Shown one piece after another: positions 1,755 to 7,761 of a stretch of DNA of 7,761 nt. Each line of letters opens with the position of its first letter. Within the stretch, counting starts at the first letter, position 1. The notes below the pieces were generated by a model. That model saw nothing but the letters and a program-made list of their open reading frames with translations, made no database searches and was not told where the DNA came from. A program made the translations under genes and the position numbers. Source of the DNA: a virus (lineage: Duplodnaviria; Heunggongvirae; Uroviricota; Caudoviricetes); IMG/VR virus record IMGVR_UViG_2671180429_000002; one strand, given 5' to 3'.

Positions 1755-2051
1755 ATGAACGCTTATTACATTCAGGATCGTCTTGAGGCTCAGAGCTGGG
1801 CGCGTCACTACCAGCAGATCGCCCGTGAAGAGAAAGAGGCAGAACTGGCAGACGACATGGAAAAAGGCCTGCCCCAGCACCTGTTTGAATCGCTATGCAT
1901 CGATCATTTGCAACGCCACGGGGCCAGCAAAAAAGCCATTACCCGTGCGTTTGATGACGATGTTGAGTTTCAGGAACGCATGGCAGAACACATCCGGTAC
2001 ATGGTTGAAACCATTGCTCACCACCAGGTTGATATTGATTCAGAGGTATAA
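1755..2051 (+). CDS. gam: Gam, short form (GamS, RecBCD inhibitor), 98 aa
   Basis: ATG 1755 with Shine-Dalgarno AGGAG (1743..1747). Translation [98 protein letters not shown] is near-identical to recalled lambda GamS. Confidence 0.9.
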
Positions 2052-2056
2052 AACGG

Positions 2057-2842
2057 ATGAGTACAGCACTCGCAACGCTGGCTGGGAAGCTGGCTGAACG
2101 TGTCGGCATGGATTCTGTCGACCCACAGGAACTGATCACCACTCTTCGCCAGACGGCATTTAAAGGTGATGCCAGCGATGCGCAGTTCATCGCATTGCTG
2201 ATCGTCGCCAACCAGTACGGCCTTAATCCGTGGACGAAAGAAATTTACGCCTTCCCTGATAAGCAGAACGGCATCGTTCCGGTGGTGGGCGTTGATGGCT
2301 GGTCCCGCATCATCAACGAAAACCAGCAGTTTGATGGCATGGACTTTGAGCAGGACAATGAATCCTGCACATGCCGGATTTACCGCAAGGACCGTAATCA
2401 TCCGATCTGCGTTACCGAGTGGATGGATGAATGCCGCCGCGAACCATTCAAAACCCGCGAAGGCAGAGAAATCACGGGGCCGTGGCAGTCGCATCCCAAA
2501 CGGATGTTACGTCATAAAGCCATGATTCAGTGTGCCCGTCTCGCCTTCGGATTTGCTGGTATCTATGACAAGGATGAAGCCGAGCGCATTGTCGAAAATA
2601 CCGCATACACTGCAGAACGTCAGCCGGAACGCGACATCACTCCGGTTAACGATGAAACCATGCAGGAAATTAACACTCTGCTGATCGCCCTGGATAAAAC
2701 ATGGGATGACGACTTATTGCCGCTCTGTTCCCAGATATTTCGCCGCGACATTCGTGCATCGTCAGAACTGACACAGGCCGAAGCAGTAAAAGCTCTTGGA
2801 TTCCTGAAACAAAAAGCCACTGAACAGAAGGTGGCAGCATGA
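2057..2842 (+). CDS. bet: Bet (Red-beta single-strand annealing recombinase), 261 aa
   Basis: 786-nt ORF. Translation [44 protein letters not shown]... matches recalled lambda Bet. ATGA start/stop overlap with exo. Confidence 0.95.
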
Positions 2843-3519
2843 CACCGGACATTATCCTGCAGCGTACTGGGATCGACGTGAGAGCTGTCGAACAGGGAGA
2901 TGATGCGTGGCACAAATTACGGCTCGGCGTCATCACAGCTTCAGAAATTCACAACGTAATAGCAAAACCCCGATCAGGAAAGAAGTGGCCTGACATGAAA
3001 ATGTCCTACTTCCACACCCTGCTGGCTGAGGTTTGCACCGGTGTGGCTCCGGAAGTTAACGCTAAGGCTCTGGCCTGGGGAAAACAGTACGAGAACGACG
3101 CCAGAACCCTCTTTGAGTTCACTTCCGGCGTGAATGTTACTGAATCCCCGATCATCTATCGCGACGAAAGTATGCGCACCGCCTGCTCTCCCGATGGTTT
3201 ATGCAGTGACGGCAACGGCCTTGAGCTGAAATGCCCGTTTACCTCCCGGGATTTCATGAAGTTCCGGCTCGGTGGTTTCGAGGCCATAAAGTCGGCTTAC
3301 ATGGCCCAGGTGCAGTACAGCATGTGGGTGACGCGAAAAGATGCCTGGTACTTTGCCAACTATGACCCGCGTATGAAGCGTGAAGGACTGCATTATGTCG
3401 TGGTTGAGCGGGATGAAAAGTACATGGCGAGTTTTGACGAGATGGTGCCGGAGTTCATCGAAAAAATGGACGAGGCACTGGCTGAAATTGGTTTTGTATT
3501 TGGGGAGCAATGGCGATGA
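2839..3519 (+). CDS. exo: lambda exonuclease (Red-alpha 5'-3' dsDNA exonuclease), 226 aa
   Basis: 681-nt ORF. Translation [40 protein letters not shown]... matches recalled lambda Exo. Translationally coupled to bet (ATGA at 2839..2842). Confidence 0.95.
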
Positions 3520-3698: not shown

Positions 3699-3862
3699 GA
3701 ATGAGCATTGAGATGGCACATAGCCTTGCTCAAATTGGAGTCAGGTTTGTGCCAATACCAGCAGAAACAGACGAAGAATTTCATACGTTAGCCACATCCC
3801 TTTCACAAAAGCTGGAAATGATGGTGGCGAAAGCAGAAGCAGATGAGAGAGACCAGGTATGA
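3671..3862 (+). CDS. lambda orf63-like small protein, 63 aa
   Basis: 192-nt ORF overlapping orf60a-like by 28 nt, the same arrangement as lambda orf63. Confidence 0.65.
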   Translation: MHKASPVELRMSIEMAHSLAQIGVRFVPIPAETDEEFHTLATSLSQKLEMMVAKAEADERDQV

Positions 3863-3942
3863 CAACCACTGAATGCATTTTTCTGGCAGCGGGCTTCATA
3901 TTCTGTGTGCTTATGCTTGCCGACATGGGACTTGTTCAATGA
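3859..3942 (+). CDS. possible 27-aa hydrophobic peptide (MTTTECIFLAAGFIFCVLMLADMGLVQ), translationally coupled to orf63-like
   Basis: ATG 3859 overlaps the orf63-like stop (ATGA). Translation is dominated by a single hydrophobic stretch. Short, with no independent support. Confidence 0.3.
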   Translation: MTTTECIFLAAGFIFCVLMLADMGLVQ

Positions 3943-4154
3943 CACCTCAGCAAGAAAACGCCCTTCGCAGTATTGCCCGTCAGGCTAATTCTGAAATCAA
4001 AAAAGCCAGACAGCAGTTTCCGGATAAAAACGTCGATGACATTTGCCGTAGCGTACTGAAGAAGCACCGCGAAACGGTAACGCTGATGGGATTCACACCG
4101 ACTCATTTAAGTCTGGCGATCGGCATGTTAAACGGCGTCTTTAAGGAGCGATGA
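3939..4154 (+). CDS. hypothetical protein, 71 aa (possible counterpart of the lambda orf61 region)
   Basis: ATG 3939 overlaps the stop of the 27-aa ORF (ATGA). Translation MTPQQENALRSIARQANSEIKKARQQFPDKNVDDICRSVLKKHRETVTLMGFTPTHLSLAIGMLNGVFKER. The track ORF 3873..4154 is the same frame from an upstream ATG that lacks a Shine-Dalgarno. Confidence 0.5.
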   Translation: MTPQQENALRSIARQANSEIKKARQQFPDKNVDDICRSVLKKHRETVTLMGFTPTHLSLAIGMLNGVFKER

Positions 4155-4176
4155 ACATGAAAAGCAAAATCATCAG

Positions 4177-4197
4177 GGAGCTACAGGCTCCTTTTTT
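4177..4197 (+). terminator. putative intrinsic terminator
   Basis: Stem GGAGC (4177..4181), loop TACAG, stem GCTCC (4187..4191), followed by TTTTTT (4192..4197). Confidence 0.4.
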
Positions 4198-4252
4198 ATT
4201 ATTCGCATTCACCCTCAAGCGTATTAACCAACAATTCAGGGATTAATGAAAG

Positions 4253-4474
4253 ATGGCGGACATCATTGATTCAGCATCAGAAATTGAAGAATTACAGCGC
4301 AATACAGCAATAAAAATGCGTCGTCTGAACTACCAGACTATATCCGCCACTCATTGTTGTGAGTGTGGCGATCCCATAGATGAACGAAGACGTCTGGCCG
4401 TTCAGGGTTGTCGGACTTGTGCAAGTTGCCAGGAAGATCTGGAGCTTATCAGTAAACAGAGAGGTTCGAAGTGA
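4253..4474 (+). CDS. TraR/DksA-family C4 zinc-finger protein, 73 aa
   Basis: Translation contains CCEC...(14 aa)...CRTCASC, a CxxC/CxxC arrangement, in a 73-aa protein; size and Cys spacing are as in F-plasmid TraR and phage TraR-like proteins. Stop overlaps the GTG start of the next gene (GTGA). Confidence 0.75.
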   Translation: MADIIDSASEIEELQRNTAIKMRRLNYQTISATHCCECGDPIDERRRLAVQGCRTCASCQEDLELISKQRGSK

Positions 4475-5109
4475 GCGAAATTAACTCTCAGGCACTGCGT
4501 GAAGCGGCAGAGCAGGCAATGCATGACGACTGGGGATTTGATGCGGACCTTTTCCATGAGCTGGTAACACCATCGATTGTGCTGGCGCTGCTGGATGAAC
4601 GGGAAAGAAACCAGCAATACATCAAACGCCGCGACCAGGAGAACGAGGATATTGCTCTTACGGTAGGGAAGCTGCGTGTTGAGCTGGAAGCAGCAGAGAA
4701 CAACCTTATTGATAGTGAATGCCATGTTGCTGAACTGGAAGAAGCGCTACGCGATAAGCAGGCGTTACTTGAAGCCTCAGAAAAGCGCAACGCAAAATTA
4801 CAAAGCGAGAATGCATACATCCGCAACCGGTACAAAGAACTGGACCTGTTAATCGGGAAAAACATTCTTGTCATGCAGGCTGCGATTATCGAATGGCAGG
4901 CAACTGGCGACGCTAAAAGCGGACTGGCATGGATTTATAACACACTGTTTGGCCCAGGCGAATTGCCGGACGAATCTGAGAAAGATGCTCAGGCCTACTT
5001 TAATCGCAAATATGCACCGATTGACGAAAAGCTTATGGAGCTTCACAAGTGGTTTTGGGAACAAAGTGAAGCCGAGCGCGCCGCTGGCATTCGCATCAAA
5101 GGAGAGTGA
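4471..5109 (+). CDS. Ea22-like protein, 212 aa, with coiled-coil centre
   Basis: GTG start at 4471 coupled to the upstream stop. The N-terminus (MSEINSQALREAAEQAMHDDWGFDADLFHELVTPSIVL) and C-terminus (AGIRIKGE) resemble what I recall of the Ea22 family. The central region is rich in E/L/K/R heptad-like sequence. Confidence 0.7.
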   Translation: MSEINSQALREAAEQAMHDDWGFDADLFHELVTPSIVLALLDERERNQQYIKRRDQENEDIALTVGKLRVELEAAENNLIDSECHVAELEEALRDKQALLEASEKRNAKLQSENAYIRNRYKELDLLIGKNILVMQAAIIEWQATGDAKSGLAWIYNTLFGPGELPDESEKDAQAYFNRKYAPIDEKLMELHKWFWEQSEAERAAGIRIKGE

Positions 5110-5110
5110 G

Positions 5111-5866
5111 ATGATTCACTACCACGGTGGGCCTATTACTCCTGATACGTGCGCAATGAGAGCATGGAAAGGGCGACATGCGTTTATCAGTTTTGCGCAT
5201 TCAGGCCAGATCAATCTCGCGGCTGAATACTGTCAGTCGTTCGCGCTGGACAACGGTGCATTCACCGCCTGGAAAGCAGCTGGCAAAAACAAAATCGACT
5301 GGAGCGATTACTACGAGTTTGTTGCTCGCTGGAAGAATCACCCAGGATTCGATTTTGCCATTATCCCGGATGTTATTGATGGCGGAGAGGAGGAAAATGA
5401 TGCGCTTCTGAATGAGTGGCCTCACGGAAAACTAGCTGGCGTTCCAGTGTGGCACATGAATGAAAGTGACGAGCGATTTATTCATTTGTGCAATGAGTTT
5501 CCGCGAGTGGCTATCGGTAGTTGTGGCGACTATGACGTAAAGCGCCCAACTCTTGCGGTAGCCAGAATGAAAGACCTGATTCGTCACATTGTTGATGGGC
5601 ATGGTCAGCCGGTTACGAAACTACATGGATTGCGCATGTTAAATCCGCTGATATTCACAAAATTACCCTTAGCCAGCGCAGATAGTACGAACGTCGCTCG
5701 AAACATCGGTATTGATAAAGCCTGGTCTGGGGCTTATGCACCTGCAAGTAAAGAGACACGCGCAGCATTAATGGTAGAACGGATTGAGGCACACAATAGC
5801 CCTGGTTCTCTTGCGTATTGTGAACAACGCGACCGCTTTGAAATGCAATTGCAACTAGCACTTTAA
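5111..5866 (+). CDS. TGT-superfamily (queuine/archaeosine tRNA-ribosyltransferase-like) protein, 251 aa, lacking the zinc-binding subdomain; DpdA-like candidate DNA-guanine transglycosylase
   Basis: ATG 5111 with Shine-Dalgarno GGAG (5101..5104). By eye the sequence aligns to bacterial Tgt catalytic motifs: ALDNGAF (D47) to LTDSGGFQ, FAIIPDV (D87) to IVMIFDE, RVAIGSCG to GYAVGGLAVG, and ASADSTNVARN (D191) to MFDCVMPTRNARN. No CxCxxC...H zinc motif. The track ORF 4868..5866 is the same frame with an unlikely upstream extension overlapping the Ea22-like gene. Confidence 0.7.
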   Translation: MIHYHGGPITPDTCAMRAWKGRHAFISFAHSGQINLAAEYCQSFALDNGAFTAWKAAGKNKIDWSDYYEFVARWKNHPGFDFAIIPDVIDGGEEENDALLNEWPHGKLAGVPVWHMNESDERFIHLCNEFPRVAIGSCGDYDVKRPTLAVARMKDLIRHIVDGHGQPVTKLHGLRMLNPLIFTKLPLASADSTNVARNIGIDKAWSGAYAPASKETRAALMVERIEAHNSPGSLAYCEQRDRFEMQLQLAL

Positions 5867-5876
5867 GGACTAACAA

Positions 5877-6674
5877 ATGACCACTATTACCAAAGAACGT
5901 ATTGAATTGTTCATTAAAAATCCGCTTGAAAACGGGCTTACTCGTGGCGAACAAATGGAACTGGCACGAATTGCACTGGCATCACTGGAACGCGAACTGA
6001 TTCGCCACGAGCATGCCAAATGGTCTGACTCCACATTTGGCTGCGTTGGCCCCATTGGTCCACTGAAACACCTCTCAAAAGAGGCTCTGGAAGCCGCAGC
6101 CGAACCAGACGATCTCAGCGAGTGGGCTGATATGCATTTCCTGTTGTGGGATGCACAGCGCCGTGCTGGCATCAGCGATGCTGAAATTACCGCTGCTATG
6201 GAAGATAAATTGAAGATCAACATGGAGCGCCAGTGGCCTGAACCAAAAGATGGTGAGCCTCGCTTGCACATTAAAGAACCCGGCAACTCTCCGGTAATTC
6301 CGGATGGTTTATCCACGGTATGCGCTGAGGCTTATCAGGTTGTAGGAGTTATGGCAGATGCGCTTGGTGTATTCGGTGATGCAGCAGTACAGAAAGTTCT
6401 GGATAACCTGTCACAGCAAAAACTTGTTCACAGAGATGTGCTGCCGTTCTCGCTTCCGGTGACTCCGGATGGTTGGATAAGCTGTAGTGAGCGAATGCCG
6501 AAAGAAACGGGTGACATTATTGTTGTTTCGGATGGCATTGTAATGTCCGGGATTTCTTATTCTCGTCGTGACGGGTTCTATATAACCGCATTGGAGTACG
6601 ACGACGATGAGCCAATTGGCGGTGTAACCCACTGGATGCCTCTACCAGAACCGCCTCGATTAAAGGAGCTATAA
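5877..6674 (+). CDS. MazG-like (all-alpha NTP pyrophosphohydrolase, DUF550-type dATP/dGTP pyrophosphohydrolase) N-terminal domain fused to a DUF551-type phage C-terminal domain, 265 aa
   Basis: ATG 5877 with Shine-Dalgarno AAGGA (5865..5869). N-terminal region carries paired acidic motifs KEALE...(8 aa)...EWAD as in MazG/HisE-like pyrophosphohydrolases. C-terminus ends HWMPLPEPP, typical of prophage DUF551 proteins as I recall them. Confidence 0.7.
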   Translation: MTTITKERIELFIKNPLENGLTRGEQMELARIALASLERELIRHEHAKWSDSTFGCVGPIGPLKHLSKEALEAAAEPDDLSEWADMHFLLWDAQRRAGISDAEITAAMEDKLKINMERQWPEPKDGEPRLHIKEPGNSPVIPDGLSTVCAEAYQVVGVMADALGVFGDAAVQKVLDNLSQQKLVHRDVLPFSLPVTPDGWISCSERMPKETGDIIVVSDGIVMSGISYSRRDGFYITALEYDDDEPIGGVTHWMPLPEPPRLKEL

Positions 6675-6788
6675 TAGTGAACTATTATATCTATTTGTAT
6701 TAAAAGAGTTTTTATAAAATAAATCTTCCAAAGCATGTAAAAACACTGTTAATCTTAACGTGTGTGAAACGTGAAGAGAGGTGTTGAA

Positions 6789-7070
6789 ATGAGCATTCAT
6801 GATTTGTGTGAAGATCAAGAGCAATGGGCTATGCAGACCCTTATGGGATCAGGAGTTCTTGCAAGGTGCAGAATCCATAACGATGTAATTTTAGACAGCG
6901 GAAATGATGCTTCTTCTGCTTATAAATTAGGAACTTACCTATATCAAAAAGATAATAGCTGCAACTTATTCAATACTCTTACTGAAGCCCGCGACGCAAT
7001 AAAGGATGCATATGAATCGTATTGTGGGATCGATGATTGCCCACAATGCTCAAAATACATTGACGATTAA
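6789..7070 (+). CDS. ea8.5: Ea8.5-like protein, 93 aa, Cys-containing
   Basis: ATG 6789 preceded by AGAGAGGTG. 282 nt, the same size as lambda ea8.5 and at the same position relative to xis (296-nt gap). Contains CGIDDCPQC. AT-rich. Confidence 0.7.
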   Translation: MSIHDLCEDQEQWAMQTLMGSGVLARCRIHNDVILDSGNDASSAYKLGTYLYQKDNSCNLFNTLTEARDAIKDAYESYCGIDDCPQCSKYIDD

Positions 7071-7090
7071 TAATATGAACAAGTAACTAT

Positions 7091-7116
7091 CCTCGCACTC
7101 GCGGGGATTTCTTTTA
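7091..7116 (+). terminator. putative intrinsic terminator (first of a tandem pair after ea8.5)
   Basis: CCTCGC / GCGGGG stem (with one G-U pair), loop ACTC, followed by ATTTCTTTTA. Confidence 0.35.
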
Positions 7117-7120
7117 TCTG

Positions 7121-7146
7121 AACTCGCTACGGCGAGTTTTGTTTTA
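7121..7146 (+). terminator. putative intrinsic terminator (second of the tandem pair)
   Basis: Stem AACTCGC (7121..7127), loop TACG, stem GCGAGTT (7132..7138), followed by TTGTTTTA. Confidence 0.45.
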
Positions 7147-7158
7147 TGGAGATGATAA

Positions 7159-7326
7159 ATGCACTTCCGAGTTACAGGTGAATGGAATGGAGAACCATTC
7201 AACAGAGTTATCGAAGCCGAGAACATCAGCGACTGCTATGACCACTTGATGCTGTGGGCGCAGATAGCACATGCAGACGTAACCAATATTCGAATTGAAG
7301 AACTGAAAGAACACCAAGCCGCCTGA
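7159..7326 (+). CDS. hypothetical small protein, 55 aa, between ea8.5 and xis
   Basis: ATG 7159 with GGAG (7148..7151). Translation MHFRVTGEWNGEPFNRVIEAENISDCYDHLMLWAQIAHADVTNIRIEELKEHQAA. Its stop lies in the loop of a terminator hairpin. Confidence 0.45.
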   Translation: MHFRVTGEWNGEPFNRVIEAENISDCYDHLMLWAQIAHADVTNIRIEELKEHQAA

Positions 7327-7339
7327 TGGCGGTTTTTTC
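7318..7339 (+). terminator. putative intrinsic terminator upstream of xis
   Basis: Stem CCGCC (7319..7323), loop TGAT, stem GGCGG (7328..7332), followed by TTTTTT (7333..7338). Confidence 0.5.
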
Positions 7340-7365
7340 TTGCGTGTAATTGCGGAGACTTTGCG

Positions 7366-7584
7366 ATGTACTTGACACTTCAGGAGTGGAACGCTCGCCA
7401 GCGACGCCCAAGAAGCCTTGAAACAGTTCGTCGATGGGTGCGCGAATGCAGGATATTCCCTCCTCCGGTTAAGGATGGCAGAGAGTATCTGTTCCACGAA
7501 TCAGCGGTAAAGGTTGACTTAAATCGACCAGTAACAGGTAGCCTTTTGAAGAGGATCAGAAATGGGAAGAAGGCGAAGTCATGA
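7366..7584 (+). CDS. xis: Xis excisionase, 72 aa
   Basis: Translation MYLTLQEWNARQRRPRSLETVRRWVRECRIFPPPVKDGREYLFHESAVKVDLNRPVTGSLLKRIRNGKKAKS is near-identical to recalled lambda Xis. 23-nt overlap with the int start, as in lambda. Confidence 0.9.
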   Translation: MYLTLQEWNARQRRPRSLETVRRWVRECRIFPPPVKDGREYLFHESAVKVDLNRPVTGSLLKRIRNGKKAKS

Positions 7585-7603
7585 GCGCCGGGATTTACCC
7601 CCT
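7562..7603 (+). pseudogene. int: int (lambda integrase) 5' fragment: first 14 codons only (MGRRRSHERRDLPP), interrupted by IS insertion
   Basis: ATG 7562 encodes MGRRRSHERRDLPP, matching the recalled lambda Int N-terminus. At 7603/7604 the sequence switches to an IS3-family terminal repeat (TGAACCGCCCCGGG...) and the reading frame stops at 7638..7640. Confidence 0.8.
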
Positions 7604-7761
7604 GAACCGCCCCGGGTTTCCTGGAGAGTGTTTTATCTGTGAACTCAGGCTGCCAGATCATTATTTCCGATGGAAGCATAATAAGCTTTTTCTGCTTCTG
7701 CCGGAGGAATATGGCCCAGCCTTTCCAGCAATCGTCGATTGTTATACCAGTCCACCCACGT
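7603..7761 (-). mobile_element. IS3-family insertion sequence (IS629-like), right end: terminal inverted repeat and 3' end of the transposase gene; element continues beyond the window end
   Basis: TGAACCGCCCCGGGTTTCCTGGAGAG at 7603..7628 is an imperfect inverted copy of the terminus at 51..75. The minus strand of 7645..7761 encodes an IS3-type transposase C-terminus. Confidence 0.8.
7645..7761 (-). CDS. IS3-family transposase OrfB, C-terminal 38 codons (partial; 5' part lies outside the window)
   Basis: Minus-strand translation from the window edge gives TWVDWYNNRRLLERLGHIPPAEAEKAYYASIGNNDLAA, ending at the stop whose complement is 7645..7647. This resembles IS3-family OrfB C-termini as I recall them. 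Confidence 0.75.
   Translation of the reverse strand, partial: TWVDWYNNRRLLERLGHIPPAEAEKAYYASIGNNDLAA

Follow-up and report, generated by a model that had tools for sequence, protein, structure and literature searches.

A phage-type DpdA homologue without precursor genes and its shuffled downstream neighbour in the early-left accessory region of a lambdoid prophage

A stretch of 7,761 nucleotides from the virus record IMGVR_UViG_2671180429_000002 (Caudoviricetes), here called the window, comes from a lambdoid prophage, of which it forms the early-left (pL) arm in the orientation opposite to the lambda map. Between an Ea22-like gene and an ea8.5-like gene it carries two open reading frames (ORFs): ORF251, a dpdA-like gene with which this analysis is chiefly concerned, and ORF265, a modular gene downstream of it. 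In lambda, ea22 adjoins ea8.5 at a distance of 191 nt, and ORF251 and ORF265 therefore occupy an accessory slot, as a first-pass annotation made from the letters of the DNA had recognized. That annotation was also right about the extent of both ORFs, but it put 4 bases between them where there are 10. Near-identical DNA is present in many Escherichia coli prophages, including that of the Shiga toxin (Stx) 1a phage EH2115, whose copy is 99.6% identical to ORF251. The two genes, the junction between them and the putative catalytic residues of ORF251 (assigned by conservation) are as follows.

5111..5866, + strand: ORF251, dpdA-like gene, 251 aa
5249..5251, + strand: codon of D47, putative general acid/base
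5369..5371, + strand: codon of D87, putative base-recognition residue
5681..5683, + strand: codon of D191 (gat), candidate nucleophile
5867..5876, + strand: 10-nt junction from the dpdA stop codon to the next ATG, GGACTAACAA, read from the sequence
5877..6674, + strand: ORF265, modular 'Eaa'-type accessory gene, 265 aa

The ATG at position 5111 is the real start of ORF251, because its initial methionine is invariant in 25 homologues, which share the opening MIHYHGGP as well, the RefSeq gene model has equal length, and an AGGAG sequence lies 6-10 nt upstream. The product falls within the phage DpdA branch of the tRNA-guanine transglycosylase (TGT) superfamily and, within it, to the zinc-less 'DpdA-only (singleton)' clade, an assignment that follows from a PHROG match, its phage relatives, a profile match to a phage DpdA, its active site and its lack of a zinc motif, and that agrees with the branch to which the protein had been provisionally referred. 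PHROG 887 ("queuine tRNA-ribosyltransferase") matches ORF251 with E=2e-103. Among phage genomes searched by tblastn, matches to ORF251 include BTP1 gp23 and its counterpart in SPN3UB (92.8% identity) and the products of SfI (67.6%), Pantoea phage MED16 (38%), HK106 and Salmonella phage 7-11 (36% each), with weaker matches to the DpdAs of Arthrobacter and Pseudomonas phages; BFVD matches also place ORF251 with phage DpdAs. In hhalign, a profile of 69 homologues matched the Iggyvirus Knedl DpdA (98.8% probability, E=4.6e-17, 151 columns) over a span that takes in the DNGAF, WH, IGS, KxHG and SxDS motifs. The family is very large, with more than 7800 clusters at 90% identity and 813 representatives at 50% identity. 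A further copy of this enterobacterial gene, with 92.8% identity, stands in OR850331.1, a 1719-bp record entitled 'Staphylococcus phage SA 1298 Kay' that is probably mislabelled or a contaminant.

The active site of ORF251 is conserved throughout the same 69 homologues, which extend down to 34% identity: no variation is seen at D47 (in the DNGAF motif), H172, D191 (in ADSTNVARN) or S192, and conservation reaches at least 90% at D87, H115 and G136, which bears out the earlier choice of D191 as candidate nucleophile and the earlier recognition of DNGAF. The order and spacing of these residues parallel those of D95, D130, H181, G206/207 and D256 of the Salmonella Montevideo DpdA, and in the predicted structure of ORF251 the three active-site aspartates lie at or just past strand ends. 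The predicted fold is a (beta/alpha)8 TIM barrel that appears closest to TGT-family structures, although Foldseek comparison with the PDB gave weak generic TIM-barrel matches only. A CxCxxC...H zinc motif is absent from the 251-aa sequence, in agreement with the missing zinc subdomain noted before, whereas canonical TGT and bacterial DpdA possess it; E. coli Tgt and bacterial DpdA are longer, at 375 aa and 413 aa. In several distant genomes (L153, L114-L116, L127, L150, L156, L157 and L162) the longest ORF with a DpdA-like domain measures 381-689 aa, which may reflect either fusion to upstream domains or an artefact of picking the first possible start codon.

ORF251 shares its family and its lack of preQ0 (7-cyano-7-deazaguanine) synthesis genes with BTP1 gp23, SPN3UB, SfI gp34, HK106 gp29, 7-11 and MED16. 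The dpdA genes of BTP1, SfI and HK106 lie, as in the window, in the early region between the recombination genes and xis/int, and BTP1 has the same order of Ea22, dpdA and eaA. Phages 7-11 and MED16 are virulent, and their relationship is only a distant one. Nothing essential distinguishes ORF251 from the DpdA-only phages, of which it represents the E. coli/Stx-phage allele. Phages with DpdA but without preQ0 or archaeosine (G+) genes were catalogued by Hutinet et al. 2019 (Nat Commun, PMC6884629). The DpdA-only list in their Supplementary Data 1 comprises HK106, SfI, BTP1, SPN3UB, SEN1, SE131, 7-11, PEAT2 and Athena1, and the article itself says of a gamma-proteobacterial singleton cluster that its function "will require more studies". 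ORF251 is a member of this catalogued group, and thus its identification as a DpdA is right but already published; the suggestion that such a gene had not been characterised in a lambdoid setting does not hold, since BTP1, SPN3UB, SfI and HK106 are all on that list. In RefSeq the BTP1, SfI and HK106 proteins are named "queuine tRNA-ribosyltransferase", and the E. coli genome copies inspected are labelled "hypothetical protein".

The better-studied DpdAs differ from ORF251 in their equipment. The DpdA1 proteins of phages 9g and CAjan and of the Pseudomonas phages iggy and Knedl have a homologous core, are likewise zinc-less and act alone without DpdB, but phages of this type carry folE, queD, queE and queC beside dpdA and replace 16-32% of G, whereas the window has no precursor genes. 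In Knedl, dpdA directly follows queE, queC, queD and folE; its product is longer (312 aa), and its hhalign match stops before the last ~50 residues of ORF251. The bacterial DpdA of S. Montevideo (PDB 7UI4) depends on the DpdB ATPase and has, besides a structural zinc site, the large insertion Ins8; none of these is found in ORF251 or the window: genes for DpdB and DpdC are absent from the window, and ORF251 has no PADLOC match to DpdA. Cap10 of type IV CBASS (cyclic-oligonucleotide-based antiphage signalling system; PDB 9NTN) works with Cap9 and a CD-NTase on protein-linked 7-amido-7-deazaguanine. The operon of that system encodes a QueC-like Cap9 and a CD-NTase with an N-terminal Gly-rich tail; these partners are absent from the window, which has no PADLOC match to the system, and PADLOC matched neither ORF251 nor ORF265. 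The rule that a zinc-less TGT homologue is a DpdA is accordingly too simple, as bacterial DpdA keeps its zinc and zinc-less Cap10 acts on protein, but the assignment that had been drawn from it stands.

No folE, queD, queE or queC gene is present in the window, as had been noted before. The precursor can come from E. coli, as 5425 of the 5426 complete genomes of that species carry queC, and the dependence on host precursors that was proposed earlier is a reasonable one, the more so as some relatives have a YhhQ-type gene alongside. The neighbours of the homologues were surveyed in 77 diverse loci (three phages and, with identities of 38-90%, species-representative genomes) by searching the ORF directly 5' of each homologue against Pfam. 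The commonest upstream family was Vut_1/YhhQ, a preQ0 transporter family, found at 10 of the 77 loci and each time above the Pfam cut-off. For example, a 155-aa Vut_1/YhhQ-like ORF of Erwinia sp. S63 (L089:7537-8004) overlaps by 4 nt the start of an 86%-identical dpdA, and short YhhQ-like ORFs also precede the homologues in Amaricoccus, Actinomycetota and Solirubrobacterales genomes; these short ORFs match the C-terminal half of the Pfam model only. In Caulobacter phage DMCA a QueD-like gene abuts the homologue, and genes for DNA methyltransferases, PAPS (3'-phosphoadenosine-5'-phosphosulfate) reductases and replication are also frequent beside diverse homologues. Through its YhhQ-type, QueD-like and methyltransferase or PAPS reductase neighbours, the singleton clade is probably tied to 7-deazaguanine precursors and to a DNA-modification setting.

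The product of ORF265 consists of an N-terminal module (aa 1-40), a DUF550 domain (PF04447, aa 42-137; E=1.1e-41, 141.4 bits against a cut-off of 23), a linker and a DUF551 domain (PF04448, aa 199-260; E=7.5e-14). The acidic residues of the E...E and ExxD motifs bind metal in MazG-like enzymes. Among 20 DUF550 sequences including that of Acinetobacter phage SH-Ab 15497, their counterparts E69, E82 and D85 show no variation, and the conservation of E72 is at least 90%. A search of PDB sequences with ORF265 gave no match, and its AlphaFold2 model, built on a shallow alignment, has a pLDDT (predicted local distance difference test) score of only 39.5. The earlier description of ORF265 as a MazG-like dATP/dGTP pyrophosphohydrolase is supported as far as PF04447 goes, but the substrate label traces to one distant fusion protein, the dATP/dGTP pyrophosphohydrolase of SH-Ab 15497 (MazZ-2 type, Z-genome pathway), which shares PF04447 with ORF265 and aligns with it in the ExxD motif (EWAD against EFAD), at only 34% identity over 71 aa. 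The SH-Ab 15497 protein also contains PF18909 (DUF5664), a domain that by itself hydrolyses dATP, dGTP and dUTP in phage Wayne, where ORF265 has DUF551 instead, and its gene adjoins those of PurZ and DatZ, whereas no PurZ gene is present in the window.

The comparison of the slot downstream of dpdA covered 47 near-identical loci (the close loci), a further 30 loci at 90-94% dpdA identity, and 68 species-representative genomes. Most close loci have in common the junction GGACTAACAA and the start MTTITKER, whatever domains come next: DUF550 and DUF551 in 20 of the 47, DUF551 only in 17, and neither in 10. The 10-nt junction is thus a recurrent mosaic joint. In the window (5867..5990) and in loci L005-L084 the 'Eaa' gene after dpdA is domain-shuffled: some copies have the DUF550 cassette, others lack it or have something else in its place. 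Elsewhere DUF550 forms stand-alone ORFs of 108 aa (L107:11118-11444 and L110:10162-10488) or the C-terminal part of an ORF of 411 aa (L089:5215-6450), and in BTP1 the order dpdA, eaA (with DUF550) is followed by an ASCH-domain gene (L001:5725-6009) that the window does not have. In E. coli OkiPb01711, the complete genome with the best match (L004:8801-8920 and 9809-11022), the gene that follows dpdA is reduced in the annotation to an incomplete pseudogene of its first ~40 codons, which lacks the C-terminus; next comes a separate coding sequence with a dATP/dGTP pyrophosphohydrolase domain, and an IS3 element lies just downstream. The OkiPb01711 locus shows decay and rearrangement ongoing in the post-dpdA slot.

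The surrounding genes of the window, with strands where assigned, are as follows.

1755..2051: gam
2057..2842: bet
2839..3519: exo
between exo and the TraR/DksA gene: small exo-xis genes
4253..4474: TraR/DksA zinc-finger gene
4471..5109, + strand: Ead/Ea22-like gene (Pfam Ead_Ea22, E=2e-23)
6771..7070, + strand: ea8.5-like gene, which closes the block (Pfam Lambda_ea8_5, E=1.1e-15)
7366..7584: xis

The stop codon of the Ea22-like gene lies 1 nt ahead of the dpdA ATG. A scan of the + strand at 4200-7100 found no promoter-like sites, two terminator-like hairpins (7089..7108 and 7120..7139) lie downstream of the ea8.5-like gene, and the GC content of the block equals that of its flanks; the block is therefore most simply taken to be read through from pL after induction or infection. 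An internal promoter that would make dpdA a lysogen-expressed moron was considered and rejected, there being neither a promoter-like site in that + strand interval nor a GC anomaly. Together with hairpins at 4175..4193 and 7316..7335, the two downstream hairpins bracket the block 4253..7070 on the + strand, and terminator-like sites in 3800..7761 number 12 against 3.9 expected from shuffles.

The Ea22-like gene is context only and does not form a conserved unit with dpdA. Most close loci have its N-terminal module beside dpdA, but an Ea22-like sequence turned up in none of the 70 species-representative genome loci that have enough upstream sequence. The one PADLOC match with a Dpd name is to model PDLC02890, 'DpdH', and covers residues 101-199 in the C-terminal half of the Ea22-like product (window 4771..5067) with E=6.9e-36; the model has only 127 positions and its name may mislead, real DpdH being a protein with an ATPase domain according to a preprint. 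The idea of an Ea22-like and DpdA unit to which this match gave rise was rejected, as the C-terminal variant concerned adjoins dpdA in 4 of 45 close loci and in 0 diverse loci.

The explanation favoured here, and considered fairly probable, is that ORF251 encodes a phage DpdA-type guanine transglycosylase of the clade without preQ0 synthesis genes of its own, which modifies DNA sparsely with a base obtained from the host and independently of ORF265. We infer its substrate, DNA as its target, the level of modification and its purpose as follows. The gene would be expressed early from the pL operon, after induction or infection, and its product may take a 7-deazaguanine base from the host Que pathway, either preQ0 or a 7-amido precursor or derivative. 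By the double displacement of TGTs it would swap this base for a small fraction of the guanines in duplex phage DNA, with D47 as the presumptive general acid/base and D87 and H115 as the residues that may read the base. Low-level modification is to be expected here because the window has no precursor genes. By analogy with two singleton relatives, the outcome would be sparse and probably motif-specific dADG (the deoxynucleoside of 7-amido-7-deazaguanine) or dPreQ0 (that of preQ0), at about 0.02-0.13% of G, and the benefit at most a narrow protection or self-marking against particular restriction systems. DNA modification by the DpdA of a lambdoid phage is plausible. The 9g DpdA expressed alone in E. 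coli put dPreQ0 into plasmid DNA, the Iggy DpdA is, according to PMC10484667, an experimentally studied dPreQ0 insertase, and dADG has been measured in the DNA of phages 7-11 (50 per 10^6 nt, ~0.02% of G) and MED16 (354 per 10^6 nt, ~0.13% of G).

A number of results weigh against this explanation. ORF251 has no match in Pfam, including the TGT family PF01702, or in NCBIfam; PDB sequences searched by phmmer and by profile yielded no TGT match; hhalign against the single E. coli Tgt sequence found nothing; and the closest solved structure is that of Cap10, a protein-acting enzyme. As to the Pfam result, PF01702 also gave 0 matches to the Iggyvirus, DMCA, HK106 and SfI homologues, and it is insensitive for the phage DpdA branch, because phage DpdAs of the validated type fail it too. 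As to the DNA, phages 7-11 and MED16 are only 36-38% identical to ORF251 and very lightly modified, they carry dADG although DpdC is absent, MED16 DNA is still cut by the enzymes tried, and the DNA of the singleton mycobacteriophage Orion, whose host does not have the preQ0 pathway, has no modification. Literature searches found no published DNA analysis of a lambdoid or P22-like DpdA phage, and no work on a DpdA from a lambdoid phage.

The first-pass annotation had joined DpdA and the MazG-like dATP/dGTP pyrophosphohydrolase into one guanine-directed module. In such a module the hydrolase might, for example, favour DpdA-modified DNA by lowering dGTP or by supplying a nucleotide. The genes are indeed 10 nt apart on one strand in one operon, the arrangement is repeated in BTP1 and in 20 of the 47 near-identical loci (43%), and in Z-genome phages a DUF550 enzyme feeds a base-replacement pathway. 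However, the adjacency falls to 3 of the 30 loci at 90-94% identity (10%) and to 0 of the 68 species-representative genomes, only 3 of which have DUF550 within 8 kb of dpdA; SfI and HK106 carry dpdA without DUF550; and the 17 close loci with DUF551 only have lost the DUF550 cassette while keeping DUF551 downstream. Of the 76 viral contigs whose DUF550 domain is 96-100% identical, 55 (72%) have no dpdA upstream and 21 do, and in complete E. coli genomes the DUF550 allele is found in 512 and dpdA in 204. Nor is a deoxynucleoside triphosphate (dNTP) step required, because DpdA works after replication, exchanging bases in finished DNA with a free base. Since adjacency is lost with distance, most DUF550 loci are without dpdA and no dNTP step is required, the pairing is a mosaic coincidence within one lineage, and ORF265 is an independent, interchangeable 'Eaa' accessory gene that DpdA function does not need. 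The module is largely refuted by gene distribution and is very improbable. It is unlikely, though less strikingly so, that ORF251 is a silent passenger, a remnant with little or no activity that is carried among the exo-xis accessory genes and has no effect on DNA. The unmodified DNA of Orion, the tiny modification and slight restriction protection of 7-11 and MED16, and the low frequency of the gene (204 of the 5426 complete E. coli genomes, ~4%) would fit such a remnant, but the host of Orion differs from E. coli in its lack of the preQ0 pathway, the ORF is intact in 201 of the 204 genomes that carry the gene, and the gene recurs beside that of a precursor transporter; above all, a very large family has kept the catalytic residues with little or no variation, which makes a silent passenger unlikely.

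Two further possibilities take their cue from Cap10. ORF251 might act on something other than DNA, transferring or removing 7-amido-7-deazaguanine on a protein or small molecule, as a counter to deazaguanylation by type IV CBASS or QatABCD, or might alter translation through host tRNA. Besides being the best structural match, Cap10 is also zinc-less, has an Asp/His pair (D248/H226) 22 residues apart where H172 and D191 of ORF251 are 19 apart, and binds a 7-amido base, and it is dADG, not dPreQ0, that the tested singleton phages contain. A non-DNA target is nevertheless rather improbable, for the Cap9/QueC-like and CD-NTase genes are absent from the window, PADLOC did not match ORF251, the sequence relatives of ORF251 are phage DpdAs and not Cap10, diverse homologues adjoin genes for DNA methyltransferases, PAPS reductases and replication, and the DNA of the singleton phages 7-11 and MED16 is indeed modified. 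The other possibility, a decidedly improbable one, is that the singleton clade is specialised for the 7-amido base (ADG) and is not a weak copy of a preQ0 insertase, either placing rare, motif-specific dADG that mimics the self-mark of host Dpd systems or intercepting the deazaguanine conjugates of type IV CBASS or Qat. It is suggested by the closest structure, Cap10, which binds 7-amido-7-deazaguanine, and by the dADG of 7-11 and MED16 in spite of their lack of DpdC. If interception of conjugates by a temperate phage were true, the gene would have a counter-defence function and not one in general restriction evasion.

The neighbour of the dpdA-like gene is a shuffled cassette, and a two-gene "module" should not be propagated. 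The gene can now be named as that of a DpdA-family DNA-guanine transglycosylase, carried by ~4% of complete E. coli genomes including Stx-converting prophages. The role of DpdA in phages without precursor genes has been a question since 2019, and a convenient system in which to test it is offered by lambdoid prophages, which can be induced in a genetically tractable queC+ host.

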